A stretch of DNA of 64,000 bases, from NCBI GenBank assembly GCA_002293845.1, contig DBEA01000010.1, positions 565-64,564 on the forward strand, read 5' to 3'. Source of the stretch: Patescibacteria group bacterium UBA918. Its GTDB lineage: Bacteria; Patescibacteriota; Minisyncoccia; Phycocordibacterales; UBA918. The notes beneath the pieces were generated by a model, which made no database searches, was not told where the DNA came from, and saw only the letters and a program-made list of their open reading frames with translations. This document shows positions 14,992 through 61,231 of the stretch, piece by piece. Both the position numbers and the translations under genes were made by a program. Within the stretch, counting starts at the first letter, position 1; each line of letters starts with the position of its first letter.

Positions 14992-15208
14992 TAACCAGAG
15001 TTCTGTTCAAAACTACCGCTAGTCTAAAGATTGGCAAAATTTGAGTAGAAATTTTCGAAAACTATTAAGCCATAGACTGCTCTGGTGAAATAGTTTTTGT
15101 AAATTTATGCCGAATTTTGGCAATCGACGACAGCGGAACTACCTATAGATGAATATGTTAGAATTAAATTATTAATTAGTGTTAGTTTTGAACTGAACTC
15201 TACTTCAT

Positions 15209-27384: not shown

Positions 27385-27414
27385 TTAAAACTACCTGTTA
27401 ACAGGTAGTTTTAA
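27385..27414. repeat. 30-bp perfect AT-rich palindrome TTAAAACTACCTGTTAACAGGTAGTTTTAA (family P, copy 1)
   Basis: Direct read; GTTAAC centre. Confidence 0.8.
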
Positions 27415-27443: not shown

Positions 27444-27481
27444 CGAACGAAAACATACGGTTAACCGTATGTTTTCGTTCG
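27444..27481. repeat. 38-bp perfect palindrome CGAACGAAAACATACGGTTAACCGTATGTTTTCGTTCG (family P, copy 2)
   Basis: Direct read; GGTTAACC centre; shares AAAAC-TAC..GTTAAC..GTA-GTTTT with copy 1. Confidence 0.8.
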
Positions 27482-44249: not shown

Positions 44250-44344
44250 TAGTTTTTAGTTGTCAGTAACGCTTCGCGTTTATGATGACGGTCAAGCCGT
44301 CGCCGTCACTAAAACCTATCATCTATAAACTAAAACCTAGATTT

Positions 44345-45988: not shown

Positions 45989-46126
45989 AACTCCCAAAAT
46001 GAGCGAATTTACATTCGCTTCGGCCGGGCCGCTCGTCACCGTATATTAAATACGGCTCCATCGCGGCCCAACCTCCAGCGAACTCAACTTCATCTCATTT
46101 AGAAAGTTTCAAACACCTACGACAAG

Positions 46127-46158
46127 AAAATCCGCGGGCCGAAGGCCCGCGGGTTTTC
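46127..46158 (+). terminator. Intrinsic terminator CCGCGGGCC-gaa-GGCCCGCGG TTTT
   Basis: Follows groEL. Confidence 0.75.
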
Positions 46159-46184
46159 CGTATTAACTTTGTTATACTTCGGCT

Positions 46185-46622
46185 ATGAAAACACGTTTCC
46201 CGTACGTTTGCGCCGTCTTTTTGCTACTGATTGAAGACGGAAAGATATTGTTGCAGAGACGGTTTCAAACAGGTCATGAAGATGGCAATTATGGAGTGCC
46301 TTCTGGACACATGGATGGTGGCGAAACTCCAAGAGAGGCTTGCGCCCGAGAGTGTGCCGAAGAAATTGGCATCAAAATCCGACCTGAAGATTTAACTATG
46401 GTTCATACAATGTATCGATCTAGCGAGAACGAACGCGTTGATTTCTGTATGACCGCCAGTCGTTATGAAGGCGAGGTACAGAACATGGAAACACACAAAT
46501 GTGACGACTTACAGTGGTTTCCGCTCGACGCATTGCCAGACAATACGATTGATTACGTACGTCAAGCGATTACGGCCTATCAGAAGGGCGTGACATATTC
46601 GGAATATAAACCAGCTGACTAG
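46185..46622 (+). CDS. NUDIX hydrolase
   Basis: Nudix box GETPREACARECAEEIG. TATACT 6 nt upstream of the ATG. Confidence 0.8.
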   Translation: MKTRFPYVCAVFLLLIEDGKILLQRRFQTGHEDGNYGVPSGHMDGGETPREACARECAEEIGIKIRPEDLTMVHTMYRSSENERVDFCMTASRYEGEVQNMETHKCDDLQWFPLDALPDNTIDYVRQAITAYQKGVTYSEYKPAD

Positions 46623-46851
46623 CTGAAAGGTGTGACGGTTGACATTTTCTCCCGTTTCCCGTAGTATGGCCCCGTTCCGAACTGTTGCCCGAAAGCCCCT
46701 GGCAGGGCCTTCGGCGCGGTACACTCTCTCGTCGGGAACCTGTGCGGGGTAGGCCGTTACCTTCTTCCACACAGGGTTCTGACAAAGACCCTATATAAGT
46801 CACCGCCTGCACCAATTTTTGCGGATTTGGATGCAGAACGCGGCGGACGAG

Positions 46852-46900
46852 GAAAATATGGCGAGCCGTATACCCATACGGTGAGCCATATTTTACCGAA
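46852..46900. repeat. Long imperfect hairpin X (GAAAATATGG-cgag-CCGTATaccCATACGG-tgag-CCATATTTTAC), 45 nt upstream of rpsS
   Basis: Shares the inner stem and internal loop with hairpin Y at 60864..60915; the outer stems differ but stay complementary. Confidence 0.6.
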
Positions 46901-46938
46901 GTCTAACAAAGTTATGTGCCAAATCCGCGTAAATTGAT

Positions 46939-47283
46939 ATGTCACGATCTATATATAAAGGCCCATACGTAGACGAGCGCCTGCTCAAAAAGATCGCCGG
47001 CAAGAAGCCGGGATCGGTCGGCGCCATCAAGACTTGGTCGCGCGACGCTATGATCTCTCCGGAAATGGTGGGATTCACCTTCGGCGTGCACAACGGAAAG
47101 ACCCACGTCGAGGTCTTGGCCACCGAGGAAATGGTGGGCCATCGACTCGGAGAGTTCTCACCGACCACCAAGTTCCTCCGCCACGGAGGTAAGATGCAGA
47201 AGGAGATGGACGTGAAGAAGAAGGAGGCTGAGATCCAGGCCGCCAAAGCCGCCAAGGAACCGGCCGCTGCCGCTAAGAAGTAA
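46939..47283 (+). CDS. rpsS: 30S ribosomal protein S19 (with Lys/Ala-rich C-terminal extension)
   Basis: GHRLGEFSPTTKFLRHG block. Confidence 0.9.
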   Translation: MSRSIYKGPYVDERLLKKIAGKKPGSVGAIKTWSRDAMISPEMVGFTFGVHNGKTHVEVLATEEMVGHRLGEFSPTTKFLRHGGKMQKEMDVKKKEAEIQAAKAAKEPAAAAKK

Positions 47284-47609
47284 TGGACACCATGAAAGCA
47301 ATTCTCAAAAACTATCGCCAATCTCCCCGCAAGGTTCGCTTGCTGGCCGACTTGGTGCGCGGCAAGAAAGTGACCGACGCCTTGCGTACGCTCAGTTTCG
47401 TCGATAAGCGCGCCTCGGGGCCTTTCATCAAGGTGATCAACTCCGCGGTCGCTAACGCCAAGACCACCGGTCGTGCAGTCGAGACTTTGAAGATCGCCAA
47501 GGTCGCGGTCGATAAGGGCATGACCTATACTCGTTTCATGCCTCGCGCCCGCGGTTCGGCCTCGCCGATCAATCGTCGCAGTTCGCACATCACGATCGAA
47601 CTCAAGTAA
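47283..47609 (+). CDS. rplV: 50S ribosomal protein L22
   Basis: Sequence and operon position. Confidence 0.9.
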   Translation: MDTMKAILKNYRQSPRKVRLLADLVRGKKVTDALRTLSFVDKRASGPFIKVINSAVANAKTTGRAVETLKIAKVAVDKGMTYTRFMPRARGSASPINRRSSHITIELK

Positions 47610-47646
47610 TTTCTAAATCCTAGATTCTAGCTTCTAAATTCTAATT

Positions 47647-48417
47647 ATGACTCACGTCGCTCATCCATTCATACAACGCATCGGTGTCAACCGCGATTGG
47701 CGCAGTCGTTGGTTCGCTACCGATCCGAAGCGTTTTCGTGAATATCTGCGCACCGACGCGGCGATCCGCAAGTACCTCGGCAAGAAGCTCAAAGGTATGT
47801 CGGTAGACTTCGTGGAGATCGAGCGCGACAAGAAGACCATCCGAGTTATCATCAAGAGTTCTCGCCCCGGGTTGGTTATCGGTCGTTCCGGTGAAGGCGC
47901 GACCAAAATCAATAAGGAGATCGATCAGTTGCTTCGTACCTTGAAGCTGACCGAGAAGCCGGAGATCAAGATCGACATCGAGGAGATCCGCTCGCCGGAG
48001 CTATCTGCCGAAATTACCGGTCAGATGGTCGCTGAAGGCCTGGAAAAGCGCATGCAGTTCCGTCGCGTCCTCAAGCAGACCATTGAGAAAGTGATGGCCA
48101 ATCGCGACGTGAAGGGAGTGCGCATCATGATGTCTGGTCGCTTGGGCGGCGCTGATATGTCGCGTGTCGAGGAGCTCAAGAAGGGACGTATTCCTCTTCA
48201 GACTTTGCGCGCCGACATCGACTTTGCTCGCGTGCGCGCCAACCTTCCTTACGGAGTGATCGGTATCAAGGTATGGATCTATCGTGGCGACATCTTCGAG
48301 GACCGCAAGGCCGGTCAGGCCGCGGCGCCAGCTCGTGATTCGCGTTCTACCGAGCGTGCCCCACGCGAATCTTCCGACCGACGTCCGCGCGCACCTCGTA
48401 GCGGTGCTAGAAGCTAG
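47647..48417 (+). CDS. rpsC: 30S ribosomal protein S3
   Basis: KH domain and operon position. Confidence 0.9.
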   Translation: MTHVAHPFIQRIGVNRDWRSRWFATDPKRFREYLRTDAAIRKYLGKKLKGMSVDFVEIERDKKTIRVIIKSSRPGLVIGRSGEGATKINKEIDQLLRTLKLTEKPEIKIDIEEIRSPELSAEITGQMVAEGLEKRMQFRRVLKQTIEKVMANRDVKGVRIMMSGRLGGADMSRVEELKKGRIPLQTLRADIDFARVRANLPYGVIGIKVWIYRGDIFEDRKAGQAAAPARDSRSTERAPRESSDRRPRAPRSGARS

Positions 48418-48441
48418 AACCATAAACTTAGAACCTAAATT

Positions 48442-48870
48442 ATGTTGTTTCCTAAGAAAGTAAAACACCGAAAGTGGCAAGTAGGCCGCAAGAACGAGGC
48501 CAAGTTGTCTCGTCCCGACACTCGCGGCATCACCGTGGCTTTCGGTTCGTATGGTCTAAAGGCCACTGCCCCGGCGCGCGTGAAGTCCAATCAGATCGAG
48601 GCGGCTCGCCGCGTGATCTCGCGCACGCTCGGCAAGACCGGCCGCGTGTGGATTCGCATTTTCCCGGATCGCCCGGTCACTAAGAAGGCCGCCGAGACTC
48701 CGATGGGTAAGGGAAAGGGCGATCCCGATCACTTCGTATTCGAAGTGGCTCCTGGTCGAGTTTTATTCGAAGTGGACGGCGTCTCCGAAGACATCGCCCG
48801 CGAAGCGATGCGTAAGGCGACCGCCAAGCTACCTCTTAAGGGTCGCTTCGTAGCTCGCGACTCCGAGTAA
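48442..48870 (+). CDS. rplP: 50S ribosomal protein L16
   Basis: Sequence and operon position. Confidence 0.9.
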   Translation: MLFPKKVKHRKWQVGRKNEAKLSRPDTRGITVAFGSYGLKATAPARVKSNQIEAARRVISRTLGKTGRVWIRIFPDRPVTKKAAETPMGKGKGDPDHFVFEVAPGRVLFEVDGVSEDIAREAMRKATAKLPLKGRFVARDSE

Positions 48871-48890
48871 TAAAGCTAAGCATTTCCATT

Positions 48891-49091
48891 ATGACCAAGA
48901 TGAATGACATCAAGAAAATGAAGGACGCCGAGCTCGCCTCGTTCGTGGCCGAGAAGCGAGAAGCGATCCGTTCTTTCCGGTTCGGCACCGGCGGTCAAAA
49001 CGTGAGTGCCGCCCGTACCGCCCGAAAGGACGTCGCCCGCGCGCTTACCGAGCTTAAGTCTCGCGCTACCTCTAAGACCGTGACCGAGTAA
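48891..49091 (+). CDS. rpmC: 50S ribosomal protein L29
   Basis: Sequence and operon position. Confidence 0.85.
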   Translation: MTKMNDIKKMKDAELASFVAEKREAIRSFRFGTGGQNVSAARTARKDVARALTELKSRATSKTVTE

Positions 49092-49102
49092 ACATATTCC
49101 AT

Positions 49103-49360
49103 ATGGCAAAAGATATTAAAACTGAAAACATCAAAGGTCGCGTGCTTCAGGGCACGGTGGTGGCATCGAAGATGCAGGACACCTGCACGGTGGCAGTCGA
49201 ACGTTACGTCAAGCACCCCAAGTACAAGAAGTTCGTCCGTTTGACGAAGAAGTTCTTGGTGCACGATCAGGGTAACACCGCGGTCGTTGGCGAAAAGGTC
49301 TCCATCGTCGAGACTCGTCCGATCTCGAAGCGCAAGCGTTTCGCCCTCCTAAGTAAATAA
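49103..49360 (+). CDS. rpsQ: 30S ribosomal protein S17
   Basis: Sequence and operon position. Confidence 0.9.
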   Translation: MAKDIKTENIKGRVLQGTVVASKMQDTCTVAVERYVKHPKYKKFVRLTKKFLVHDQGNTAVVGEKVSIVETRPISKRKRFALLSK

Positions 49361-49366
49361 AGGCTT

Positions 49367-49738
49367 ATGATTCAACCTCAAACTCTCGTAAAGATCACAG
49401 ATAACTCCGGCGGTAAGATCGGCCGCGTGTTCAAGGTGCTCGGAGGTTCCAAGAAGCGCTATGCCGAGCTGGGCGAGATGGTCGTGCTTTCCGTGCAGAC
49501 CGCCGAACCGCGCAAGCTCGTTAAGAAGAAGGACGTGGTTTACGGAGTGGTCGTCCGTCAGCAGAAACCTTTCCGCCGCGTCGACGGTTCGTACGTATCT
49601 TTCGATGACAACGCGGTGGTCTTGGTCGACAAGGAGAAGAAGGAACCAAAGGCCAACCGTGTGTTCGGCCCGATTCCACGCGAACTCGCCGAGGCCGGTT
49701 ATCAGAAGATCGTTTCCCTCGCTCCGGAGGTCGTCTAA
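49367..49738 (+). CDS. rplN: 50S ribosomal protein L14
   Basis: MIQPQTLVKITDNSGGK. Confidence 0.95.
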   Translation: MIQPQTLVKITDNSGGKIGRVFKVLGGSKKRYAELGEMVVLSVQTAEPRKLVKKKDVVYGVVVRQQKPFRRVDGSYVSFDDNAVVLVDKEKKEPKANRVFGPIPRELAEAGYQKIVSLAPEVV

Positions 49739-49756
49739 TCTTGTAACTATCGTCAT

Positions 49757-50056
49757 ATGAAAATCAAGAAAGGAGACAAGGTGGTGGTGCTGTCCGGTAA
49801 GGACAAAGGCAAGACCGGTAATGTGGAGAAAGTTTTTCCGAAGACCGGCATGGTATTGGTCGAAGGCGTTAATGTCGCCACCAAGCACCAGAAGAATCGC
49901 CGTGTCCGCTCTCAAGGACAGGTGATCAAGAAGTCCGTACCGGTCAATGCTTCCAACTTGGCTTTGGTCGAGGGCGATAAGGCCGTTAAGGTCGGCTATA
50001 AGATCGAAGAAGGCAAGAAGGTTCGCGTCAATCGCAAGACCGGCAAGGCGATCTAG
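49757..50056 (+). CDS. rplX: 50S ribosomal protein L24
   Basis: KOW motif KIKKGDKVVVLSGKDKGK. Confidence 0.9.
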   Translation: MKIKKGDKVVVLSGKDKGKTGNVEKVFPKTGMVLVEGVNVATKHQKNRRVRSQGQVIKKSVPVNASNLALVEGDKAVKVGYKIEEGKKVRVNRKTGKAI

Positions 50057-50083
50057 GTGTCTCGATAAAATAATTTTATAAAC

Positions 50084-50632
50084 ATGAAAACTCTAAAAGA
50101 AAAACTCAGCGGTGCCTTCGAGGCCTTGAAGTCGGATTTGGGCTATACCAATGTCATGCAGGCTCCTCGCTTGGAGAAGGTCGTCGTCTCGGTCGGCGTC
50201 GGCAAGATCGACGATAAGGCGAAGAAGGAAGCGATCTTCGAACGCTTGTCCCGTATCACCGGCCAGAAACCTTCCCCTCGACCGGCCAAGCAGTCGATCG
50301 CGTCCTTCAAGCTTCGTCAGGGCGACATCATCGGCTATCAGGTGACGCTTCGAGGCGAGCGCATGCATCACTTCCTCGACAAGCTGATCCACATCGCTCT
50401 CCCGCAGACTCGCGACTTCCGCGGACTCAAGACCACCGCCATCGATGAAATGGGTAACATCTCGCTGGGCATCAAGGAACATACCATTTTCCCGGAGACC
50501 GCCGACGAGGACATTCGCGACGTTTTCTCCCTCGCTATCACTTTGGTCACTACCGCCAAGAACAAGAAAGAGGCTGAGGCTTTTCTCCGCCACATCGGAC
50601 TTCCATTGCAGAAGGAGGAGGCTACTGTCTAA
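50084..50632 (+). CDS. rplE: 50S ribosomal protein L5
   Basis: Sequence and operon position. Confidence 0.9.
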   Translation: MKTLKEKLSGAFEALKSDLGYTNVMQAPRLEKVVVSVGVGKIDDKAKKEAIFERLSRITGQKPSPRPAKQSIASFKLRQGDIIGYQVTLRGERMHHFLDKLIHIALPQTRDFRGLKTTAIDEMGNISLGIKEHTIFPETADEDIRDVFSLAITLVTTAKNKKEAEAFLRHIGLPLQKEEATV

Positions 50633-50640
50633 ATTTTTTA

Positions 50641-50690
50641 CAGCAAAAGTAAAGCCGCCGGCCTATGGCCGGCGGCTTTACTTTTTGCTG
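50641..50690 (+). terminator. Strong intrinsic terminator inside the spc operon (AAAGTAAAGCCGCCGGCC-tat-GGCCGGCGGCTTTACTTTTT)
   Basis: 17-bp perfect stem plus T-run immediately after rplE. Confidence 0.75.
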
Positions 50691-50907
50691 AAATCTGGTA
50701 ATGTTGGCCTCGTTGTGGAGTGCTGTTAGATGCCTAAAAAGGCGGCGTTCCATAGGCCCGAAAGGGCTGTTTATAAGCAAAGCAGGTCGGCACATCTAGC
50801 CGATACCACTTTGAACCAGTTTACAGTTACAAGTTTTTAGTTTTCAGTGTCGTCGTTGGCGACCGTTTACTAAAAACTAAAAACTGACAACTAATAACCT
50901 AAACTGA

Positions 50908-51093
50908 ATGGCTCGAACATCGATCAAGGTTCGTGCTACTCGGACTCCGAAATATAAGAGTCGAGTGGTGCGTCGTTGCGTCCAGTGTGGCCGCAAACAC
51001 GGATACATGCGAGATTTCGATCTCTGCCGTATCTGTTTCCGCGAACATGCCCATGAGGGTTTGATACCGGGCGTTAAGAAGAGCAGCTGGTAA
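50908..51093 (+). CDS. rpsZ: 30S ribosomal protein S14 type Z (zinc-binding, 61 aa)
   Basis: [23 protein letters not shown]. Confidence 0.9.
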
Positions 51094-51099
51094 TAGAAA

Positions 51100-51215
51100 T
51101 CCCAAAATTGGCGCATATGCACGGGTTTCAGAAATTTCTCTCAGTCGCCGTAGGTTAGTCTACGTCTTCCTCGCGAAATTCCTTCCAACCCGCACATCTG
51201 CATTCAATTTTGAAA
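51100..51215 (+). repeat. Spc-operon intergenic repeat, copy 1 (~115 nt, about 90% identical to copy 2)
   Basis: ttggcgcatatgcacgggtttcagaaatttctctcagtcgccgtaggttagtctacgtcttcctcgcgaaattccttccaacccgcacatctgcattcaattttg. Confidence 0.8.
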
Positions 51216-51233
51216 TTCCTAATCAATTAATGT

Positions 51234-51620
51234 ATGGATACAATTGGAGATTTCATCATCCGGCTTAAGAACGCCGGGGCAGTGGGACACGAAGAAGTGT
51301 CGTTGCCGCACTCGAAGATCAAAGAAGCGATCGCCGAAAAGCTCGTCGCCGCCGGCTACCTGGCCTCAGCCCGAGTAGAAGGCAAGGACGTCAAAAAGAC
51401 GTTAGTGGTGTCCTTGCGTTACGACGCCGGCCGACACGCTATCGCCGACGTACAGCGCGTTTCAAAGCCCGGTCGAAGGCTTTATGCAAAGGTAGAGGAG
51501 ATTTATCCGGTAAAGTTCGGCAAGGGTCACCTGATCCTCTCGACTCCTAAAGGTATTTTGACCGACAAGGAGGCGAAGGCGGAAAAGGTGGGCGGCGAAC
51601 AGTTGTTTAAGATCTGGTAG
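51234..51620 (+). CDS. rpsH: 30S ribosomal protein S8
   Basis: MDTIGDFIIRLKNAG. Confidence 0.9.
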   Translation: MDTIGDFIIRLKNAGAVGHEEVSLPHSKIKEAIAEKLVAAGYLASARVEGKDVKKTLVVSLRYDAGRHAIADVQRVSKPGRRLYAKVEEIYPVKFGKGHLILSTPKGILTDKEAKAEKVGGEQLFKIW

Positions 51621-51624
51621 GCTT

Positions 51625-52158
51625 ATGTCACGACTTGGAAAACAACCGATCACTTTGCCCGCGGGCGTCGAGGCGACCTTTGTCGATGGAGTTTTGACCA
51701 TCAAGAAGGGTAACAACGTCCTCACTCGCGAGATGAAGGATGATGTGGAGGTTAAGGTGGATGGCACTACCATTACCTTGGCACCGCAGGCTGGTAGCGA
51801 ACTCGCCGCCGCTTTGTGGGGCACTTACGCCGCTCACGTTCGTAACATGATCGCGGGGGTGACCGAGGGCTTTAAGAAGATTCTCGAGATCGAGGGCGTC
51901 GGCTATCGCGCCGAACTGAAAGGCAACAAGCTCGTCTTGTTGATGGGTTACTCGCATCCGGTGGAGATGGAAGTGCCGACCGGCATCACCGTCGTCGTCG
52001 AGAAGGGAGTCGTCACTATTAGCGGCATCGACAAAGAGGCGGTCGGACAGTTCGCCGCCAACGTGCGCAAGGTGAAGGAACCGGAGCCTTACAAGGGCAA
52101 AGGTATTCGATATCAGGGCGAGTATATTATCAGAAAGCAGGGCAAGAAAGCCGTTTAA
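51625..52158 (+). CDS. rplF: 50S ribosomal protein L6
   Basis: MSRLGKQPITLPAGVE. Confidence 0.9.
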   Translation: MSRLGKQPITLPAGVEATFVDGVLTIKKGNNVLTREMKDDVEVKVDGTTITLAPQAGSELAAALWGTYAAHVRNMIAGVTEGFKKILEIEGVGYRAELKGNKLVLLMGYSHPVEMEVPTGITVVVEKGVVTISGIDKEAVGQFAANVRKVKEPEPYKGKGIRYQGEYIIRKQGKKAV

Positions 52159-52164
52159 AAATCC

Positions 52165-52281
52165 AAAAGTTGACGCATATGCACGGGTTTCAAAAATTTC
52201 TCTCGGTCGCCGTAGGTCAATCTACGTCTTCCTCGCGAAATTTCTTCCAACCCGTACATCTGCATTCAATTTTGTCTTTTT
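52165..52281 (+). repeat. Spc-operon intergenic repeat, copy 2
   Basis: ttgacgcatatgcacgggtttcaaaaatttctctcggtcgccgtaggtcaatctacgtcttcctcgcgaaatttcttccaacccgtacatctgcattcaattttg. Confidence 0.8.
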
Positions 52282-52304
52282 AAATCACTGTCTTAAACAA
52301 AGTT

Positions 52305-52661
52305 ATGGCAACTACAAAAACCCAACTCAAAAAGGCTCGCCGCACTTCGCGACACGATCGCATCCGCGCGCGCGTGATCGGGACGGCCGAAAAACCTCGC
52401 TTGGCGGTGTTCAAGAGCAATGTCGCTCTTTATGCTCAGCTCATAGATGATGCCTCCGGAAACACTCTGGCAGCAGCGGACACTCGTAAACAAAAAGGGG
52501 CTAACCTGATCGAACGAGCGACGGCGTTAGGTGCGGAAATGGCCAAAGAAGCCAAAAGTAAAGGAATCGAGGCGATCGTGTTCGATCGCGGAGGTTTCCG
52601 TTATCAGGGCGCCGTAGCCGCTTTGGCCGATGGCGCCCGCGAAGGAGGGCTCAAATTTTAA
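52305..52661 (+). CDS. rplR: 50S ribosomal protein L18
   Basis: Sequence and operon position. Confidence 0.9.
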   Translation: MATTKTQLKKARRTSRHDRIRARVIGTAEKPRLAVFKSNVALYAQLIDDASGNTLAAADTRKQKGANLIERATALGAEMAKEAKSKGIEAIVFDRGGFRYQGAVAALADGAREGGLKF

Positions 52662-52711
52662 CTCCGGTTAAAGTTCGTAACACTACTTACTAATTTCTAT
52701 TCACTAAAAAC

Positions 52712-53341
52712 ATGCAGGAAGCTAAAACAGTCGAAGAGACAAATGAGACGGTAGCTACCGTCGCCGATGCACCTGCTGGCGAAACTCCGACGAGCGACGC
52801 TGGCACTAAAGGTAACGAACGCGGGTTCGGTAATCGTCGAGGAGGAGATAGGAACGATCGTCGCAACCCGCGTCGTCCTCGTCGTGGAGGCGGGCGTGAG
52901 GCGCGCGTGCGTCCGGAGTTCGACCAGAAGATAATTTCTATTCGTCGCGTGACCCGCGTGATGGCCGGCGGACGTCGTTTCTCGTTCTCGGTCGCTATGG
53001 TCATCGGTGACAAAAAAGGTCGCGTCGGTGTCGGCATCGGTAAGGCCGGCGACACCCAGCTCGCCATCGAGAAGGCGGTACGCGATGCCAAGAAGCACAT
53101 GATCACCGTACCGATGGACGAGCATAGCCGTATCGCTCACGATGTGGAGAAGAAGCTATCCGCCAGCCGCGTGATGATCATGCCGGCTCCCGGGCGCGGT
53201 CTCGTAGCTGGTAGTTCCGCTCGAACGGTACTCGAAATGGCCGGCGTCAAGGACGTCACCGCCAAGCTCTTGTCGCGCAGTAAGAACAAACTTAACAATG
53301 CTCGCGCTACCATTGAGGCGCTGAAATTACTAAAAGCTTAA
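52712..53341 (+). CDS. rpsE: 30S ribosomal protein S5 (with Arg/Gly-rich N-terminal extension)
   Basis: S5 dsRBD and C-domain. Confidence 0.9.
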   Translation: MQEAKTVEETNETVATVADAPAGETPTSDAGTKGNERGFGNRRGGDRNDRRNPRRPRRGGGREARVRPEFDQKIISIRRVTRVMAGGRRFSFSVAMVIGDKKGRVGVGIGKAGDTQLAIEKAVRDAKKHMITVPMDEHSRIAHDVEKKLSASRVMIMPAPGRGLVAGSSARTVLEMAGVKDVTAKLLSRSKNKLNNARATIEALKLLKA

Positions 53342-53351
53342 ATAGACCACC

Positions 53352-53795
53352 ATGCAGTTAAATCAACTAAAATCAGCTTCGGCTAAAAAGACCGCCCGTC
53401 GCATCGGTCGTGGTGGTAAGCGCGGTAAGATGTCCGGTCGCGGACATAAGGGCCAGACCGCTCGTGCCGGTAATTCCACTCGTCCCGAGATGCGCGAGCA
53501 GATCAAGAAGATCCCTAAATTGCGCGGACATGGCGTCAATCGCGCCGAGGCCGTCAATGCCGAGCGCGTGCGCCCGATCGTGGTCAACCTTTCGGCCTTG
53601 GCCGTATTGGAAGCCGGTGCGGTCGATCCTAAGATTCTAGTGGCCGCCGGTATAGTCTCCTCTAAAGGCAAAAAGACCCCGCTAGTGAAGATCTTGGGCA
53701 CTGGCGAAGTTACTAAGAAATTCACGATCACCGGCTGTCTAGTGTCGGCTTCGGCTAAAGAGAAGATAGAGAAGGCCGGCGGTGAAGTGAAGTAG
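53352..53795 (+). CDS. rplO: 50S ribosomal protein L15
   Basis: GRGGKRGKMSGRGHKGQ. Confidence 0.9.
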   Translation: MQLNQLKSASAKKTARRIGRGGKRGKMSGRGHKGQTARAGNSTRPEMREQIKKIPKLRGHGVNRAEAVNAERVRPIVVNLSALAVLEAGAVDPKILVAAGIVSSKGKKTPLVKILGTGEVTKKFTITGCLVSASAKEKIEKAGGEVK

Positions 53796-53869
53796 GTTAC
53801 AGGGTGTAGGGTTTAGGGTATAGTAGTACCGTTTAGACCCTGAACCCTAATCCCTGAATCCTAATCATT

Positions 53870-55141
53870 ATGTCAACATTCCTACACAAACTGAAAGTGG
53901 CTTTTACGGACGAAGCGATCCGTAGGCGATTGTTGTTCGTTCTGGGCGCTCTGTTCGTCTTTAGGGCCTTGTCGACGATTCCGATTCCGGGAGTCGACCA
54001 TCTCGTATTGGAGCAGTTTTTCGCCAATAACCAATTTCTCGGTCTCTTGAACATTTTTTCCGGCGGCGGCCTAGCGAACCTGTCGATCATCATGCTCGGC
54101 GTCGGTCCGTTCATCACCGCTTCCATCATCATGCAGTTGTTGACAGTGATGTCTCCCAAGATGAAGAGCCTATATACCGAAGAGGGAGACGCAGGTCGCG
54201 CTCGGTTCACCCAATACTCCCGTATGTTGACCGTACCGCTCTCCGTCCTCCAAGGCTACGGCTTTTTGACCCTGTTACAGAGCCAAGGCGTCATTTCCGG
54301 CCTGAGTTTGTTCGCTTTCGCCACAAACGTGGTCTTAATCGCGGCCGGCTCCATACTCCTCATGTGGATCGGAGAGTTGGTGACGGAATATGGCATCGGA
54401 AACGGCGTTTCGATCATTATCTTCGCCGGTATCGTCGCCGGTCTCCCGGCGACCGTAAGCCAGTTGGCTTTTGCCTATAGTCCGTCGCAATTGCCGCTTT
54501 ACATCGGTTTCGGCCTCTTGGCTCTGGCAGTCATCTATGCTGTCGTGATTATGACCGAGGCGGAACGTCCTGTCCCTATTACGTACGCTAAGCAGAGTCG
54601 CGGCGGTATGACCTACGGCGGCACTTCTTCTTACATCCCACTGCGCCTCAATCAGGCCGGCGTCATCCCGATCATCTTCGCCATGTCGATCCTATTGTTC
54701 CCGCAGATGTTGATCAACGTGCTCGCCACTTTCGACATAGGCGGTCTCGATCGAGTTTCCGGAGCGATCACCTCGTTTTTGAACAATCAGCCGGTATACG
54801 CCGCCGTCTATTTCGTCTTGGTGATACTGTTCGCTTTCTTCTACACCGCGGTCACCTTCGACCCGGACTCCATGGCCAAGAACTTGCAACGTAACGGCGC
54901 ATTCGTTCCCGGTCTTCGCCCCGGTGCCGCTACGGCCGAGTATTTTGGCGGCCTCATCACCCGGTTGACTTTAGTAGGCGCGGTCTTTCTGGGCCTCGTG
55001 GCCGTACTGCCTCTTGGTATGCAGATGGCGACCGGTATCGCGGCTCTGGCCATTGGCGGTACCGCGCTCCTCATCGTAGTGAACGTGGTTTTGGACCTCT
55101 TGCGAAGGGTTGATGCCCAGGTGGCAATGAGGGAATATTAG
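53870..55141 (+). CDS. secY: Preprotein translocase subunit SecY
   Basis: 10-TM SecY sequence and operon position. Confidence 0.95.
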   Translation: MSTFLHKLKVAFTDEAIRRRLLFVLGALFVFRALSTIPIPGVDHLVLEQFFANNQFLGLLNIFSGGGLANLSIIMLGVGPFITASIIMQLLTVMSPKMKSLYTEEGDAGRARFTQYSRMLTVPLSVLQGYGFLTLLQSQGVISGLSLFAFATNVVLIAAGSILLMWIGELVTEYGIGNGVSIIIFAGIVAGLPATVSQLAFAYSPSQLPLYIGFGLLALAVIYAVVIMTEAERPVPITYAKQSRGGMTYGGTSSYIPLRLNQAGVIPIIFAMSILLFPQMLINVLATFDIGGLDRVSGAITSFLNNQPVYAAVYFVLVILFAFFYTAVTFDPDSMAKNLQRNGAFVPGLRPGAATAEYFGGLITRLTLVGAVFLGLVAVLPLGMQMATGIAALAIGGTALLIVVNVVLDLLRRVDAQVAMREY

Positions 55142-55164
55142 AACTTCCAGACTCAGGAAAAAAC

Positions 55165-55200
55165 AGGGCGGCCCGCAGGGCCGCCCTGTTTTTTCCTCTA
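55165..55200 (+). terminator. Intrinsic terminator AACAGGGCGGCCC-gcag-GGCCGCCCTGTTTTTTCC
   Basis: Perfect stem plus T-run after secY. Confidence 0.8.
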
Positions 55201-55215
55201 AAAATCTGTTAATCT

Positions 55216-55794
55216 GTGGATGTGAAAAACGCTGACACGCGGTATCAAAGCATCATCTTCATGGGAAAGACCGGGTGCGGAAAAGGTACTCAAGCACACC
55301 GCTTGGCGGCAGACTTCGGCTACGATCTTTTCTCTACCGGCGACCGCGTGCGCGCGTTAAGCAACGAGGACACTTCCCTCGGTCGCCATATCAGGGATAT
55401 CCACATGAGCGGCTGGGTGCCTGAATGGCTGGCTAGTTATCTTTTTGCCAAGGCAATTTTAGAGGAGGACATCGATCATGGTTTGGTCTTCGAGAGCGTG
55501 GCCAGGAAGCCGGAAGAGGCTAAGAAACTCCATGAGATGCATCACATGCTCAATCGTTCCTACGTGGTTCTGCACTTGGATGCCGCGGACGAGGTGGTGA
55601 TCGATCGAATGCGCAAACGCCAGCGCGACGCTTCCGATTCTGAAGAGAACATCAAGAAACGGTTACAGGCTTTTTATGACGAAACCGTCCGTTCACTCGA
55701 GTTTTTCCGAGAGCAGGGCAAGGTCGTCGATATCGATGCCACCAGATCACCGGACGAAGTGTATCAAGAAGTGTTAAAAGCTATCGCCAAGTAA
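55216..55794 (+). CDS. Adenylate-kinase-family NMP kinase, divergent paralog (LID/NMP-binding motifs altered)
   Basis: P-loop GKTGCGKGTQ, STGDRVR. ESVARKP replaces the canonical DGFPRT. Confidence 0.65.
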   Translation: MDVKNADTRYQSIIFMGKTGCGKGTQAHRLAADFGYDLFSTGDRVRALSNEDTSLGRHIRDIHMSGWVPEWLASYLFAKAILEEDIDHGLVFESVARKPEEAKKLHEMHHMLNRSYVVLHLDAADEVVIDRMRKRQRDASDSEENIKKRLQAFYDETVRSLEFFREQGKVVDIDATRSPDEVYQEVLKAIAK

Positions 55795-55795
55795 C

Positions 55796-56392
55796 ATGCG
55801 ACCTACGACAGTCATATTCATCGGTCCCCAAGGAAGCGGTAAGGGGACTCAGATTGAGAAACTCGATCAAGTACTGCGCGGAAAGGACCCCACTAGACGC
55901 GTGGTCGACATCCAGACCGGTCGACGCTTTAGGGCCATGGCCGCTTCCGGCGAGGGTTACACGGAAAAACACGTGCAAGCGACACTGAACACCGGTGTGC
56001 TACAGCCCCTGTTTCTTTCGACCGTGCTGTGGGGCGATGCTATGCGCACTCATCTCGACAACGAGTGTCACTTGCTCATCGACGGTTTCCCGCGGGTTAT
56101 AGACGAAGCCAAGGTTTTGGAGTCGGCCCTGAGGTTCTACGACCGCAATCCGGTCGACATCATTTACCTTGATACCCCGGAGGAGGTGGTGCGTGGTCGT
56201 ATGACGAGCCGCGCTCGACCCGATGACACCAAAGAGTCCATAGAAGAACGACTTAGATGGTACCGTGAGGAGACCTTGCCGGTAGTGGAGTATTACCGCG
56301 TCAGACCGAACGCGCATGTTCATGATATAGACGGCACCGTCTCCATAGACGATGTGCACCGTGCTATTTTGAACGCTCTTAATTTGGCTTAA
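55796..56392 (+). CDS. adk: Adenylate kinase (short-LID type)
   Basis: GPQGSGKGTQ, LIDGFPR, classic position after secY. Confidence 0.85.
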   Translation: MRPTTVIFIGPQGSGKGTQIEKLDQVLRGKDPTRRVVDIQTGRRFRAMAASGEGYTEKHVQATLNTGVLQPLFLSTVLWGDAMRTHLDNECHLLIDGFPRVIDEAKVLESALRFYDRNPVDIIYLDTPEEVVRGRMTSRARPDDTKESIEERLRWYREETLPVVEYYRVRPNAHVHDIDGTVSIDDVHRAILNALNLA

Positions 56393-57166
56393 ATGGCTAT
56401 CACTATCAAGACCAAAGAAGACATCGCTAAGTTGCGAAAGGGTGGAAAGATCCTCGCAGGTATTTTGGACGAACTGGAAAAGGAGGTGGTCCCTGGGAAC
56501 ACCACCCTAGACGTCGACGATCGCGCCATGGAACTGATCGAGGCGGCCGGTCTTGAACCCATGCTCCTCGGTTATCAGCCTAGTTTCGCCCCTAGGCCGT
56601 ATCCGGCGGCCACATGCGTCTCGGTCAACGATGTCGTCGTTCACGGTATTCCTAACGAAAAACCCCGCACTTTCAAGGATGGCGATGTTGTCAGTGTCGA
56701 CTTGGTGATCGGCTATGACGGTATGGTGTTGGATTCTTGCCGCACTGTTATTTGTGGAAACGGCGACAGCGAGGCCGAGGAGTTGCTCGAGGTGACCAGG
56801 AAGGCCCTCAAGGCCGGCATCGCCGCCGTTCGTCCGGGTCGCCATGTCTCCGATATCGGGGCCGCCATCGAGAAGGTCGTACCGGCAGGTTACGGTATCG
56901 TCGAGGCTTTGTGCGGACATGGCCTCGGTTATTCTCTTCACGAAGAGCCGCAGATTCCGAATTACGTCATCAGAGGCTACAAAGGCGCGCTCTTGAAGCC
57001 GGGAATGGTGTTGGCGATCGAACCGATGATCATCCACGGCGACAAGGACGTGGTCTTCGATGAACGAGATGGCTATGCCGTGCGCTCGGCAGATGGCCAT
57101 GTGGCCGCGCATATGGAGCATACGGTCCTAGTGACCGAAAAAGGCGCGGAGGTCCTAACTCGCTAA
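56393..57166 (+). CDS. map: Methionine aminopeptidase type I
   Basis: Pita-bread fold motifs; classic position. Confidence 0.9.
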   Translation: MAITIKTKEDIAKLRKGGKILAGILDELEKEVVPGNTTLDVDDRAMELIEAAGLEPMLLGYQPSFAPRPYPAATCVSVNDVVVHGIPNEKPRTFKDGDVVSVDLVIGYDGMVLDSCRTVICGNGDSEAEELLEVTRKALKAGIAAVRPGRHVSDIGAAIEKVVPAGYGIVEALCGHGLGYSLHEEPQIPNYVIRGYKGALLKPGMVLAIEPMIIHGDKDVVFDERDGYAVRSADGHVAAHMEHTVLVTEKGAEVLTR

Positions 57167-57227
57167 ATATCGTTTTGTCTTTTGGTTTTTTCGTGCTATC
57201 CTCACGTGACTTTAGAAACCAAACGTT

Positions 57228-57833
57228 ATGAATAAATTGCCACATCAAGAAAGATCCCTCGTGCTCTTGAAGCCGGACGCCGTACAGCGTAGCCTTATCG
57301 GCGAGGTTGTCGGCCGTTTCGAGCGCGTCGGCCTCAAGGTGGCCGCCATGAAAATGGTCATGGCCACAGAGGAACAACTCATCACTCATTATAATAAGAC
57401 CGACGAGTGGTATGAAAGAAAGGGCAAGGGTATCGTGGCCGATATGGAGGCCCATAAGATCCCGGTCACCAAGGAACCGATCGAGTACGGCAAAGATATC
57501 ATTCGCAACATGGTGAAGTACATGACCGCCGCGCCGGTCGTCGCCATTGTGCTCGAAGGCAATCAGTCGGTGGCGGTAGTGACCAAGCTGGTCGGTACGA
57601 CCGAACCCTCCACTTCGGACGTGGGCACCATTCGCGGCGATTACACGCTCGATTCGTACTCTCACGCCACCATCGAGAATCGCGGCGTGCGCAATTTGAT
57701 CCACTGTTCCGAATCCCCGGCCGAGGCCGAACGCGAGATGGCCATTTGGTTCACGGACGGCGAGATGATGAAGTACGCTACGGCTCAGGAACGCATCATG
57801 TACGACGTCAACCTGGATGGATCGAACGAATAA
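57228..57833 (+). CDS. ndk: Nucleoside diphosphate kinase (long form with ~60-aa insertion)
   Basis: LVLLKPDAVQRSLIGEVV...NLIHCSESPAEAEREMAIWF. Confidence 0.8.
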   Translation: MNKLPHQERSLVLLKPDAVQRSLIGEVVGRFERVGLKVAAMKMVMATEEQLITHYNKTDEWYERKGKGIVADMEAHKIPVTKEPIEYGKDIIRNMVKYMTAAPVVAIVLEGNQSVAVVTKLVGTTEPSTSDVGTIRGDYTLDSYSHATIENRGVRNLIHCSESPAEAEREMAIWFTDGEMMKYATAQERIMYDVNLDGSNE

Positions 57834-57856
57834 TTGAAATTTCATTAAGAAACAAA

Positions 57857-57890
57857 AAGCGGCGGGCCGAAAGGCCCGCCGCTTTTTGCC
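57857..57890 (+). terminator. Intrinsic terminator AAAAGCGGCGGGCC-gaaa-GGCCCGCCGCTTTTTGCC
   Basis: After ndk. Confidence 0.8.
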
Positions 57891-57899
57891 CGTGTTATG

Positions 57900-58145
57900 A
57901 TTTTCAGAGGACTGATAAAGCATGTTCCGAGTTATGCAACATTTAGGGCTGCCTTTAGACTCGGTTTCCTATGAGAATCCCTCGGGACTTTCAGACAGTT
58001 ACCGGTACGGGTGCCCACCTGGCACAGCGCCGGGGACATGCTCAGTCCGACGAATTCGCCTCCATTCTCGCCGTAAAGACGACGTTGTGGTGAGAGTGGA
58101 GGCGGATTCTGAAAGCTCCGTCTGTTGACGGAGCTTTTGTATTTT
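57900..58145 (+). ncRNA. Terminator-bounded ~220-nt segment ending in hairpin AAAGCTCCGTC-tgttg-ACGGAGCTTT TGTATTTTT. Candidate sRNA or attenuator, or a 68-aa ORF (57922..58128).
   Basis: No conserved protein features in the ORF. The second terminator is 20 nt before the next gene. Confidence 0.3.
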
Positions 58146-58166
58146 TCGACGTGATAAAATCGATAC

Positions 58167-58553
58167 ATGATAAAGCCGGTCACTACAATCTTCGTCATAT
58201 CCGCTTCGATACTGGCCACCACTAATTATTTGGCCATCGAGTTCTATCTATATTGGTATTATCCGTGGATCGATCTGGTCACTCATTTTCTCGGCGGAGC
58301 GGTGGCCGCCTTAGGGGCGTTTTCTTTGAAGGACTTTTGGCCGCGATTTCCAGGACGAGCACTTCGTTTATCTATAATCATCACTTTCGTGTTCCTGGTG
58401 GCCGTAGCTTGGGAGGCCTTCGAGGTTTGGGCCGGCATTTCTATGAACGAACCGGGGTATGCTTTAGACACGGTGCTGGATCTCATCATGGGTCTATCGG
58501 GCGGTGGCGTCGGGTATTTTGTCGGCCGTAACGTGAGAGATTTAGACCTATGA
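58167..58553 (+). CDS. Hypothetical membrane protein (4 TM)
   Basis: tgATAAAAT 6 nt upstream of the ATG. Not CrcB-like or SMR-like by motif. Confidence 0.5.
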   Translation: MIKPVTTIFVISASILATTNYLAIEFYLYWYYPWIDLVTHFLGGAVAALGAFSLKDFWPRFPGRALRLSIIITFVFLVAVAWEAFEVWAGISMNEPGYALDTVLDLIMGLSGGGVGYFVGRNVRDLDL

Positions 58554-59911
58554 CCTCGAAACTAGGTTTCTACGGAGGAGTGGGAAGCGTCACCGGCGCC
58601 AATTTCTGGCTCGATACCGGCGGCTCCCAGATCGTGGTCGACTGCGGCCTGGTGCAGGGCGACCGGTTCGACATGGAGGTTAACGCCGAGGATTTCGCCT
58701 TCGACCCTAAGGCCGTGAACACCCTTCTTGTCACTCATGCCCATGCCGACCACATCGGCCGCGTGCCCAAGCTCGTTCGCGACGGTTTTTCGGGCAAGAT
58801 ATATTCGACCGAACCCACTCGGGCACTGGCCGATGTGATGTTGCGCGACGCATACAGAGTGATGGTCTATGAGTCTGAACGTTATGGCTCGCCGGTTCTT
58901 TACGACGAGGCGGACATCGACCAGGCCTTGGCACTCTGGAACTCGGTCGAGTACGAAGAACCTTTAAGTTTGCCCGACGGCGTGACGGCCAAGTTTAAAG
59001 ACGTCGGCCACATTTTGGGTTCCGCTTCGATCACGCTCAGTCGCGATGATCGGTCGATCGTGTTCAGCGGGGACATCGGCAACGTGCCCCAGCCTTTACT
59101 CGATGCCCCGGTCGTCCCTGTCGGCTATGATTATTTGGTCATGGAGAGCGTATACGGCGATCGGCGCCATGAGGAGGTAAAAGAACGGTCCGATCTATTG
59201 CGTCACCACATCGAGGACACTATTAAAAAGCGGGGTACTCTGATCATTCCGGCGTTTTCCCTGGAGCGCACTCAAGGCATGCTGTTCGAGATCAACAATC
59301 TGGTGGAATCGGGGGCGATCGCTCCGATACCGACTTTCCTCGATTCGCCATTGGCGATTGCCGTCACTGAGATATATCGTGATCGCACCAATTACTTGCG
59401 TCGCGAGGTCAGAGAGCAGATCGCCAACGGCGACGACATCTTCGACTTTCCTAAACTCAAGTTCACGCGTAGCGCCGCTGATTCGGCTCTGATCGGAAAA
59501 GAGAAGGGAGCGAAGATCGTCATCGCCGGCAGTGGCATGTCGCACGGTGGGCGTATTTTAGGCCATGAACAGCGATATCTCGAGGACCCGTCCACCACGC
59601 TCCTCTTGGTCGGCTACCAGGCCGTCGGGTCGGTCGGCCGCCGGCTACAAGACGGCGCCAAGAGCCTCAAGATCGACGGCATCAAAGTGAAGGTAAAAGC
59701 CAAGATCGCGGTGATCCGCGGCTGGTCCGGCCATGCCGACCGCGATCAGCTCGTCGACTTCGTCGCCCAAGGCGGCGGGAAGGCTAAGCAGGTTTTCGTG
59801 ACTATGGGCGAAGAGCGCTCCTCGTTGTTCTTGGTCCAGCGTCTCCGCGATTATTTAGGCGTCAACGCCGTGGCTCCGAGCGCGGGGGAGGTGGTAGAGA
59901 TCGAGTTTTAG
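58550..59911 (+). CDS. MBL-fold beta-CASP family nuclease (RNA-metabolising metallo-beta-lactamase, RNase J/CPSF-like)
   Basis: HAHADHIGR motif plus beta-CASP region. Confidence 0.7.
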
Positions 59912-59924
59912 TAAAATATCAACA

Positions 59925-60416
59925 TTGACCATGGCTCATAATAACTATTATCTTGATTTTTGTGTCGATACTTATGTAGTCAATGGAGACTCGGTTTTGC
60001 TTCGGTTGCACGAAAAATACAATTACTGGGGTTCTCCCGGCGGTCACATCGACCCGGGAGAAGATGCTAATGAGGCTGCTGTGCGCGAAGTTTGGGAAGA
60101 AGTGGGTCTTAAGATTAGTTTGGTAGGTCCTGCTGATTGGGTTAAAACGGATACTGAGACTAATAAAGATCTTGTACCACCCCTTTTTATCAATAGGCAC
60201 TCAATAAGTGCGACCCATGACCACACGGCCTTGGTTTTTATTGCTGAGTCCGAATCAAGAGATATAAATCCTCAGACTGAGGAAGATAAAAACAAAGCCG
60301 CTGCATGTCGCTGGGTGACTCAGTCTGAACTTGACGATTTACTCAAGGACGACCCGAGAATGCGTCCGGAGATCCACCGCTACGCTTCCACTGCTTTACG
60401 GCTCGTTAATAAATAA
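59925..60416 (+). CDS. NUDIX hydrolase
   Basis: [23 protein letters not shown]. Confidence 0.8.
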
Positions 60417-60450
60417 CAAAGCCCCGCGCCGAAGGCGCGGGGTTTTGTAT
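60417..60450. terminator. Bidirectional terminator AAAGCCCCGCGCC-gaa-GGCGCGGGGTTTTGT
   Basis: Perfect hairpin between convergent genes. Confidence 0.75.
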
Positions 60451-60474
60451 ACTGCGAGTCGAGTCACTGCGCGA

Positions 60475-60819
60475 CTATTTGACCTGATCCACGATTCTCT
60501 GGAACGCTTCCGGACGATCCTTGGCCAAGGTGGCGAGGATCTTGCGATCGACAGCGATACCCTTATCTTTCATCGTCTTCATGAAAGTGCTGTATTTGAG
60601 GCCTTGGGCCTTTAGGGCCGCATTGATGCGGGTGATCCAAAGTGCGCGGAAATCGGCCTTCTTGTCCTTGCGGTGCGCGAAGGCGTAGGTCTGCGCGTGA
60701 TGAATGGCCTCGATCGCTTGGCGTTTCTTCTTGGAGCGGCCGAAGCGGTAACCTTTGACTTGTTCGAGGATGTTGCGACGGCGCTTCTGGGCCATCAATC
60801 CTCCTTTGACACGGGACAT
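60475..60819 (-). CDS. rplT: 50S ribosomal protein L20
   Basis: MSRVKGGLMAQKRRRNILEQVKGYRFG. Confidence 0.9.
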   Translation of the reverse strand: MSRVKGGLMAQKRRRNILEQVKGYRFGRSKKKRQAIEAIHHAQTYAFAHRKDKKADFRALWITRINAALKAQGLKYSTFMKTMKDKGIAVDRKILATLAKDRPEAFQRIVDQVK

Positions 60820-60863
60820 AAATTAGTAAGTAGAAATTAGAAAGTAGTAAGTATGGGCAAAAC

Positions 60864-60915
60864 TTTCACAGTTATGGAAATTCGTAGGGTTGGAGGAAAG
60901 TTTGTGAGCGAGCCG
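60864..60915. repeat. Long imperfect hairpin Y (GGAAAGTTTGT-gagcgag-CCGTATacagaCATACGG-tgacga-ACAAAATTTCC) in the rpmI-rplT spacer
   Basis: Paralog of hairpin X at 46852..46900. Confidence 0.6.
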
Positions 60916-60960
60916 TATACAGACATACGGTGACGAACAAAATTTCCGAAACCCAAGAAT

Positions 60961-61158
60961 TTACTTAGCTGTGGGAGTTTTGGGAAGGAAACGACGGGTA
61001 ATGCGCTTGCTGTAATTCAATACCTGAGTGCGCTTGCGACGAAGACGTTGCTGGCCGCTCTGGCGGGCGTTGAAGTGGTTCTGTCCGGGCTTCCTGGCCA
61101 CCAGCTTACCGTTCTTCGTCACCTTGATTCTCTTGGTATAACTTTTATTTGTCTTCAT
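60961..61158 (-). CDS. rpmI: 50S ribosomal protein L35
   Basis: MKTNKSYTKRIKVTKNGKLVARKPGQNHF. The start is moved to the internal Met; the track start is 61200. Confidence 0.8.
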   Translation of the reverse strand: MKTNKSYTKRIKVTKNGKLVARKPGQNHFNARQSGQQRLRRKRTQVLNYSKRITRRFLPKTPTAK

Positions 61159-61231
61159 AATGTTTTCGATTTTCGGGGTATTCTGTCGGAGAAGCGACAA
61201 AAGTGCCTAGAAATATACCGCAAAAAAACCT

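Follow-up and report, generated by a model that had tools for sequence, protein, structure and literature searches.

Six rods among the housekeeping genes of UBA918

We analysed a stretch of 64,000 nucleotides (nt) from Patescibacteria group bacterium UBA918 (GenBank assembly GCA_002293845.1, contig DBEA01000010.1, positions 565 to 64,564 of the forward strand), hereafter the window. Its plus strand carries groEL (44282-45988), a NUDIX gene (46185-46622) and rpsS (46939-47283), followed by further ribosomal genes, while infC, rpmI (60961-61200) and rplT (60475-60819) are called on the minus strand. Two related hairpins, X near rpsS and Y in the rpmI-rplT spacer, had been singled out in an initial annotation of this DNA. 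Folding with their flanks shows both hairpins to be the apical third of imperfect palindromes of ~120-125 nt, which we refer to as rods. Using a covariance model built from ten co-linear copies with the rod structure, and searching with filters off, we identified six rods in the window (X, Y, Z, W1, W2 and W3), a number we take as a minimum.

Rod X (46813-46934, plus strand; 116.7 bits, E = 3.6e-25; minimum free energy (MFE) structure) has the sense orientation of rpsS and stops 4 nt short of the ATG of that gene (46939). The rod lies ~145 nt downstream of a putative promoter on the plus strand (TTGACA-17-TAGTAT, 46639-46667, 10/12 consensus matches), and would therefore fall within the 5′ untranslated region (5′ UTR) of an rpsS-led transcript, in which the sequence between promoter-like site and rod shows no unusual structure (z = -0.68). 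X is identical in 9 contigs of the same species, while the version in L010 carries a C-to-T change that converts a G-C pair to G.U on the plus strand. Its tip (46852-46896, plus strand) has the sequence and position initially reported and folds at -31.2 kcal/mol (z = -7.7 against shuffled sequence). Rod Y (60858-60980, plus strand; 49.3 bits, E = 4e-9; fold) covers the end of rpmI over ~20 nt, stop codon included (60961-60963), and at its other end is 38 nt from the rplT start (60819). It shares the DNA orientation of X and, according to the gene calls, is antisense to the minus-strand infC-rpmI-rplT operon, both as originally proposed. The sequence first given for the Y tip is likewise exact, but its position, 60864-60915, was ~31 nt too low; the tip occupies 60895-60947 and folds at -23.7 kcal/mol on the plus strand (z = -4.5 against shuffled sequence). 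The complements of both tips fold more weakly. A very similar copy of Y is present in the Saccharibacteria genome L016.

The inner stem common to X and Y, CCGTAT/ATACGG, is not a chance feature, as CCGTAT-N2-8-ATACGG occurs three times in the window versus 0.03 expected from shuffles. The third match, which had escaped the first inspection, identifies rod Z on the minus strand (45988-46111, 54.8 bits; pattern match) between groEL and the NUDIX gene. Z has the same core (GAGCCGTAT...ATACGGTGA) within a third, GC-rich outer stem, is antisense, and has its 3′ end on the groEL stop codon (45986-45988). Between Z and the NUDIX gene is a conventional GC-rich hairpin bordered by A and U runs, terminator-like on both strands (46126-46160; inverted repeat I24, with a terminator-like call on the minus strand). 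A plus-strand transcript of the upstream gene would thus carry the complement of Z in its 3′ UTR.

Rods W1 (51096-51221, minus strand; 39.6 bits, E = 8e-7; fold) and W2 (52158-52282, minus strand; 30.2 bits, E = 1.4e-4; fold) are both antisense, W1 between rpsN (S14, stop 51093) and rpsH (S8, start 51234) and W2 between rplF (L6, stop 52156-52158) and rplR (L18, start 52305). The two are ~90 % identical by eye with compensatory differences, and both carry a variant apex (GAGGAAGACGUAG-loop-CUACGGCGACUGA in W1). W3 (15026-15126, plus strand; 35.4 bits, E = 8e-6; inverted repeat I1) is shorter and divergent, is without the segment containing helices P3 and P4 described below, and lies in sense orientation with a dihydrouridine synthase gene on one side and, on the other, a small open reading frame (ORF) upstream of dnaX.

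A conserved six-helix architecture

In MFE folds the rod consists of six helices separated by purine-rich, GA-type loops. The base is P1, an A/U-rich helix of ~16 base pairs (bp) of the CCAAAAU/AUUUUGG type that pairs both termini of the element. Above it are a bulged A, then P2, a helix of 4 bp in which a U.G pair is conserved (48/77 sequences of the model alignment), and P3, of 3 bp. The internal loop beyond P3 reads RAGGC on its 5′ strand and RAC-RAAG on its 3′ strand. P4 leads to a GA/GAA loop, and P5, a long helix of ~12 bp, to a tandem GA/GA. A conserved G.U pair (65/77) closes the 7-bp stem of the tip, whose loop measures ~2-8 nt. The flanking GA...GA and the internal loops are invariant across the family. 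Copies without the exact core have a tip stem that itself covaries, so that CCGTAT/ATACGG, although far from random in the window, is a common variant and not a universal signature.

Compensatory change between the outer stems of X and Y had been read as evidence of paralogous copies of a selected structure, and the wider family bears this out. We measured covariation on a 77-sequence alignment, with the caveat that it was fitted to the covariance model. Of its cells, 88.7 % were paired versus 58.5 % in shuffles, and 45 of 47 pairs showed changes on both sides, which bears out compensatory change across the 77 family members. The covariation score of 0.719 compares with 0.189 in shuffled alignments (0/500 as high) and 0.10-0.13 with partners slid. 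Heavy covariation is already apparent in P1-P3 in a plain MAFFT alignment.

The hairpin is stable on both strands, at about -56 and -46 kcal/mol, and constraint on the two is unequal. The strand carrying GAGCC folds better than its complement in 109/122 copies, and in 77/85 when the apex is masked and only the arms are folded. Across consensus pairs of the fitted alignment, with the two conserved wobble positions excluded, G.U outnumbers A.C by 190 to 58. The ratio is 74:25 in copies antisense to both neighbours (n = 34) and 29:9 in sense copies (n = 11); being ~3:1 in either case, it indicates that the constraint belongs to the element's own strand and not to the host mRNA. A deamination bias on the non-template strand would be expected to give the opposite pattern for antisense copies. 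The strand reading GAG-stem...stem-YGA is thus kept foldable whichever way its neighbours are transcribed.

Several simpler readings of the conserved motifs were considered and set aside. The GGAGG and GAGGA motifs are conserved internal loops found mostly on the non-mRNA strand, rather than Shine-Dalgarno sequences; separately, no recognisable Shine-Dalgarno sequence is present in the short spacers that follow the rods before rpsS (46939), rpsH (51234), rplR (52305) and rplT (60819). On inspection, the GA motifs do not fit the consensus nucleotides of hammerhead, twister, K-turn or loop-E elements, and no Rfam ribozyme matched. The tandem GA pairs of a kink-turn are present, but its 3-nt bulge geometry is missing, the loops being 2x2 or 2x3. 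A small ORF within the tip (ATG GCG AGC CGT ATA CCC ATA CGG TGA in X; GTG...TGA in Y) was rejected, since Z has a different frame and the loops, which range from 2 to 8 nt among family members, preserve none.

Rods across Patescibacteria and a deltaproteobacterial lineage

A scan for the exact core, using one genome per species, returned at least 120 loci. Most of the matches listed are from Patescibacteria, including Saccharibacteria, Kaiserbacteria, Paceibacterota, Campbellbacteria, Uhrbacteria and Peregrinibacteria among others; the S3 protein of the window itself has its closest named relatives in Paceibacterota and Nomurabacteria. About ten of the loci are chance core matches without a rod (among them L019, L021, L024, L030, L072, L092, L107, L108 and L129). 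Four exact-core matches on viral contigs likewise fail the covariance model and are thus attributed to chance, and a phage origin was rejected. The covariance model yielded ~102 distinct copies across 74 loci once duplicate calls on the opposite strand had been discarded by eye. Up to four rods occur per 8 kb, many of them without the exact core, and they can be immediate neighbours, as in the direct tandem 4 nt apart at L057 (7296-7417 and 7422-7545) or the adjacent inverted pair at L065 (1571-1691, plus strand; 1770-1889, minus strand). By extrapolation a Patescibacteria genome of ~1 Mb may hold tens, perhaps hundreds, of rods.

Outside Patescibacteria, many near-identical copies are found in one deltaproteobacterial lineage of metagenome-assembled genomes (MAGs; JACRML01, MGRL01, MGPS01, JACQEJ01 and others, a subset of L025-L125). 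These are composites of ~235 nt in which the rod stands between a CCCAAAAATAGAC...TTTTTGGGG hairpin and a GTAAAATAGCGA...TCGCTATTTTAC hairpin, with four optional inserted hairpin modules, and they occupy varied intergenic contexts. No flanking duplication was seen in 25 aligned copies.

The family lies outside Rfam: there was no match in the window at the gathering threshold, around X/Z and around Y at E up to 10, or in 18 related loci. The MDR-NUDIX RNA motif, considered since NUDIX genes flank copies, also gave no Rfam match. Literature on the core sequence, on Patescibacteria and Saccharibacteria repeats and on RNA motifs yielded no description of the element, which is not proof that it is unpublished.

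Rods are anchored at gene ends

We placed 80 copies against crude ORF calls. In 60 of them, the folded strand has the stop codon of an opposite-strand gene at its 3′ end, separated by a median of 1 nt, and in 46 of these the gap is between -31 and +12 nt. In the other 20 copies it has a start codon there instead, no more than 12 nt away in nine (X, for example). The 5′ end is unanchored, with median gaps of 60-90 nt. It is thus at its 3′ end that the folded strand is tied to a gene boundary, for the most part an opposite-strand stop codon. Copies occur on both strands and ~78 % are antisense to the local coding strand. The neighbouring genes, identified from flanking translations and not by a family search, are diverse housekeeping genes including atpD, ssb, tuf, secY, nusG, rpoD, groES, dnaG and ileS.

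A promoter-like site lies upstream of 3/76 copies on the folded strand and of 4/80 on the complement, and none at a fixed distance on either strand, so that a promoter belonging to the folded strand was rejected. A consensus scan for intrinsic terminators called no rod, the U run lying inside P1 and not directly after a short GC-rich stem; as U runs are symmetric on both strands and paired within P1, a directional terminator was also discarded. The operon-internal copies (rpsN-rpsH, rplF-rplR and rpmI-rplT) are only 12-38 nt from the start codon that follows, and strong promoter-like sites are absent downstream of them, one weak site (9/12) lying inside W2. Rods cannot be efficient terminators, because these spacers must be read through and X stands between its promoter-like site and rpsS.

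A rod within ileS and a hybrid rod in the window

A full-length rod (34-50 bits) is present in frame and antisense inside the ileS gene of oral Saccharibacteria (L036:3222-3341, and the same site in L041, L043, L048, L061, L076, L083 and L088). The residues that it encodes, ~40 in number, separate the conserved motifs MYAEVD and NPLDIW. Close IleRS homologues are without the segment, among them P0007, which is 95 % identical over aligned columns, while more distant homologues carry it and some have other insertions at this site. One filled and one empty allele, compared as DNA, differ by 102 nt.

Near-identical paralogues occur at unrelated loci, as seen for W1 and W2 and for two Z-type rods (~95 % identical by eye) that follow groEL and rplB in assemblies of the same species. 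The Z copy in the window is identical to the groEL copy as far as a point past the loop, and from that point on to the rplB copy (45970-46111 versus L136:4689-4960 and L001:9033-9262). Gene order changes with it: the window reads groEL-Z-NUDIX-rpsS, while in other same-species assemblies groEL is followed by LemA/DUF2207 and rplB by Z-NUDIX-rpsS. As Z is a hybrid of two paralogues, either the genome was rearranged here or the contig is an assembly chimera whose join falls within the repeat. Upstream of rpsS in the related genome UBA6201 (L121:1808-1929) a similar copy is found in the opposite orientation.

Other features of the window

Two perfect palindromes, one of 38 nt (27444-27481; CGAACGAAAACATACGGTT/AACCGTATGTTTTCGTTCG), which contains the words ATACGG and CCGTAT in reverse arrangement, and one of 30 nt (27385-27414), are not rods (≤ 15.7 bits with the covariance model). 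AT-rich repetitive stretches just upstream of rpsN (50818-50892) and rplT (60820-60855) are also distinct from rods, one being a hairpin-forming AGTTTACAGTTACAAGTTTTTAGTTTTCAGT...ACTAAAAACTAAAAACTGACAACT and the other TTAGTAAGTAGAAATTAGAAAGTAGTAAGTA. Two NUDIX hydrolase genes adjoin the ribosomal-protein operons, at 46185-46622 (between rplB/groEL and rpsS) and at 59925-60416 (beside rplT), and in related contigs (L001) methyltransferase genes interrupt the ribosomal cluster between rpsJ and rplC. Tandem adenylate kinase genes (55216-55794 and 55796-56392) follow secY. A beta-CASP metallo-beta-lactamase ribonuclease (58550-59911) matches the NCBIfam model named for type VII CRISPR Cas14 at 1e-117, far below the cut-off of that model.

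Possible origin and function of the rods

In their multiple copies, their occurrence in both orientations, their extragenic location, with room for an in-frame place within a gene, their paralogues at unrelated loci and a copy number very different between lineages, the rods behave like the intergenic palindromic repeats known elsewhere among bacteria (REP/REPIN, ERIC, Correia and Rickettsia RPE). The reading that we favour, to which we give roughly even chances, is that they are a dispersed palindromic element of the REPIN, ERIC, RPE or attC kind that is propagated or maintained via one folded strand, most likely as single-stranded DNA. The element would be maintained and spread in the form of this folded strand, which would most likely be recognised, as single-stranded DNA, by a structure-specific recombinase or transposase, with a geometry like that of integron attC bottom strands and a logic like that of REP-RAYT or IS200/IS605 systems. 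An RNA intermediate may take the place of DNA. Co-transcription of rods as long hairpins within 3′ UTRs and intercistronic spacers would then be a by-product, which may affect mRNA processing or stability.

A number of observations weigh against such an element. Conserved G.U and tandem sheared G.A pairs are classic features of RNA, and the excess of G.U over A.C was counted on an alignment fitted to a model of the same strand. No excess of direct repeats of 4-8 nt over mismatched controls, and hence no target-site duplication of ≥ 4 nt, was found across the element boundaries, and since the flanks of the ileS site cannot be aligned, that site provides no clean insertion boundary. No transposase or recombinase partner was identified, no search having been aimed at one. 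Copies within a genome are mostly very divergent yet remain paired, which requires many master lineages or else that every copy has long been under selection. Orientation relative to replication is confounded with orientation relative to genes, local GC skew giving the same ~78 % as gene direction and the 13 discordant cases splitting 7 to 6. The folded strand is mostly on the C-rich strand, which, if skew marks replication here, is contrary to the prediction for insertion of the IS200/IS605 type into the lagging-strand template.

As a more tentative possibility, rods may represent an undescribed class of structured single-stranded element, with a deeply conserved GA-loop architecture, of which a dedicated protein reads one strand, serving either an attC-like recombination or shuffling of core housekeeping operons as single-stranded DNA or a strand-specific RNA system at gene ends in bacteria whose regulatory repertoires are minimal.

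A serious rival, given that conserved G.U and tandem G.A pairs are typical of RNA, is a structured RNA with a function for the host, in which the GAGCC strand would be a protein-binding rod that serves translation or RNA metabolism, in cis or as a small RNA, its periodic GA-type loops and conserved G.U pairs providing the surface to be recognised. The very strong covariation, the wobble pairs conserved in P2 and at the tip, the excess of G.U and an architecture maintained across Patescibacteria classes and the deltaproteobacterial lineage are all consistent with this, as is the sense orientation of X in the putative 5′ UTR, 4 nt from the rpsS start codon. With ~78 % of copies antisense to local genes, however, this strand would rarely be transcribed, and promoter-like sites at a fixed distance are absent. 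The ileS copy lies within a coding region on its antisense strand, the orientation upstream of rpsS is flipped in UBA6201, and copy number varies from one per 8-kb locus in oral Saccharibacteria to several per 8 kb elsewhere. On balance we consider a host RNA rather unlikely.

We regard as improbable an orientation-independent hairpin acting in the mRNA after stop codons, whether as a bidirectional terminator, a 3′-end protector or a processing site for RNase III or another enzyme. Placement immediately after stop codons, the A run and U run in the two strands of P1, the great stability of both strands and the general analogy with the effects of REP and ERIC sequences on mRNA all speak for it. 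The same element strand is nevertheless favoured in sense and antisense copies, so that most mRNAs would carry the less well-paired complement, and a plain hairpin has no need of conserved asymmetric purine loops. Efficient termination is incompatible with the operon-internal copies and with the position of X, and conventional GC-rich terminators, unlike any rod, are called beside the rods. Together these points argue against a purely mRNA-level hairpin.

The initial suggestion that X and Y mimic rRNA sites in autoregulation by S19 or L20, for which X on the sense strand of the rpsS 5′ UTR and Y in the rpmI-rplT spacer would speak, retains next to no likelihood, and the rods are not ribosomal-protein operators, as Y, Z, W1 and W2 are all antisense, neither L20_leader nor any other Rfam leader matches, the strand constraint is independent of the direction in which the flanks are transcribed, and the element flanks dozens of unrelated genes, occurs in varied deltaproteobacterial contexts and is found inside ileS.

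Patescibacteria genomes are tiny and packed, and a filler of ~120 nt in many spacers, even in ribosomal-protein operons, is therefore a major unexplained use of sequence. If selfish, the rod would be a new and ancient type of palindromic repeat, one that can be carried inside an essential gene and causes rearrangements, or errors of assembly, at housekeeping loci; if functional for the host, it would be the sign of a new protein-nucleic acid system in a large part of the bacterial tree that is still poorly understood. In practice, rods are likely breakpoints of MAG misassembly and a source of false regulatory-hairpin calls beside ribosomal genes. Across very distant lineages the family keeps its structure, including its non-Watson-Crick loops, together with a strand preference independent of the direction of transcription.

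Comparison with known systems

Rods share traits with several known elements and lack at least one defining feature of each, and so belong to none of them. The tip (GAGCCGUAU...AUACGGU) has an AGC triad, a G.U pair and several stem bases like those of the lower helix of group II intron domain V in yeast ai5-gamma. A domain V, a hairpin of 34 nt, was rejected as the 2-nt bulge, upper helix, GNRA loop, intron context and an Rfam intron match are all lacking and the tip covaries, and we treat the resemblance as coincidental. The Rickettsia palindromic elements (RPEs) are likewise palindromic repeats of ~100-150 bp that can sit in frame in an essential gene and add a peptide to its product. Rods differ in being mostly intergenic, with a single in-gene case seen, and in belonging to an unrelated host lineage.

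The MITE-like ERIC (IRU) sequences and Correia elements of Neisseria (~100-150 bp) resemble rods in size, in being imperfect palindromes over their whole length and in their intercistronic, co-transcribed position, and P1, which pairs the termini of the rod, corresponds to the terminal inverted repeats of a MITE. The effects of ERIC and Correia elements are reported to depend on orientation. Unlike them, rods show no target-site duplication of ≥ 4 nt, are far more divergent within a genome, have one constrained strand and are anchored on gene boundaries by one particular end.

The fallback initially proposed for X and Y, a REP-like element acting at the DNA level, comes close to the reading favoured here, although rods are not REPs in the strict sense. 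Like the REP, BIME and REPIN sequences of Proteobacteria, with their RAYT proteins, rods are dispersed extragenic palindromes with many copies in both orientations (six in the window, ~102 in the 74 loci), often after stop codons, with a hairpin maintained by compensation and with mosaic or composite arrangements such as those of the deltaproteobacterial copies. REPs and REPINs are themselves thought to be handled as folded single-stranded DNA. A REP unit, however, measures 20-40 nt and has a conserved 5′ GTAG, whereas the rod is a single hairpin of ~120 nt with GTAG in 2/80 copies, conserved asymmetric GA loops and an architecture retained across very distant lineages.

Integron attC sites, such as the Vibrio cholerae repeats of 123-126 nt, are conserved in structure rather than sequence, follow the stop codon of an ORF and fold from the strand complementary to the coding strand. 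Rods differ from them in that the RYYYAAC and GTTRRRY core sites are absent (0/80 on either strand), the neighbours are housekeeping and ribosomal genes and not cassettes, and about a quarter of copies are in the other orientation. They are like attC sites in length, in the conservation of structure, in their position directly after a stop codon, in the folding of the non-coding strand and in the short spacer to the next ORF, and the attC geometry is found in ~75 % of rods (60/80, median gap 1 nt).

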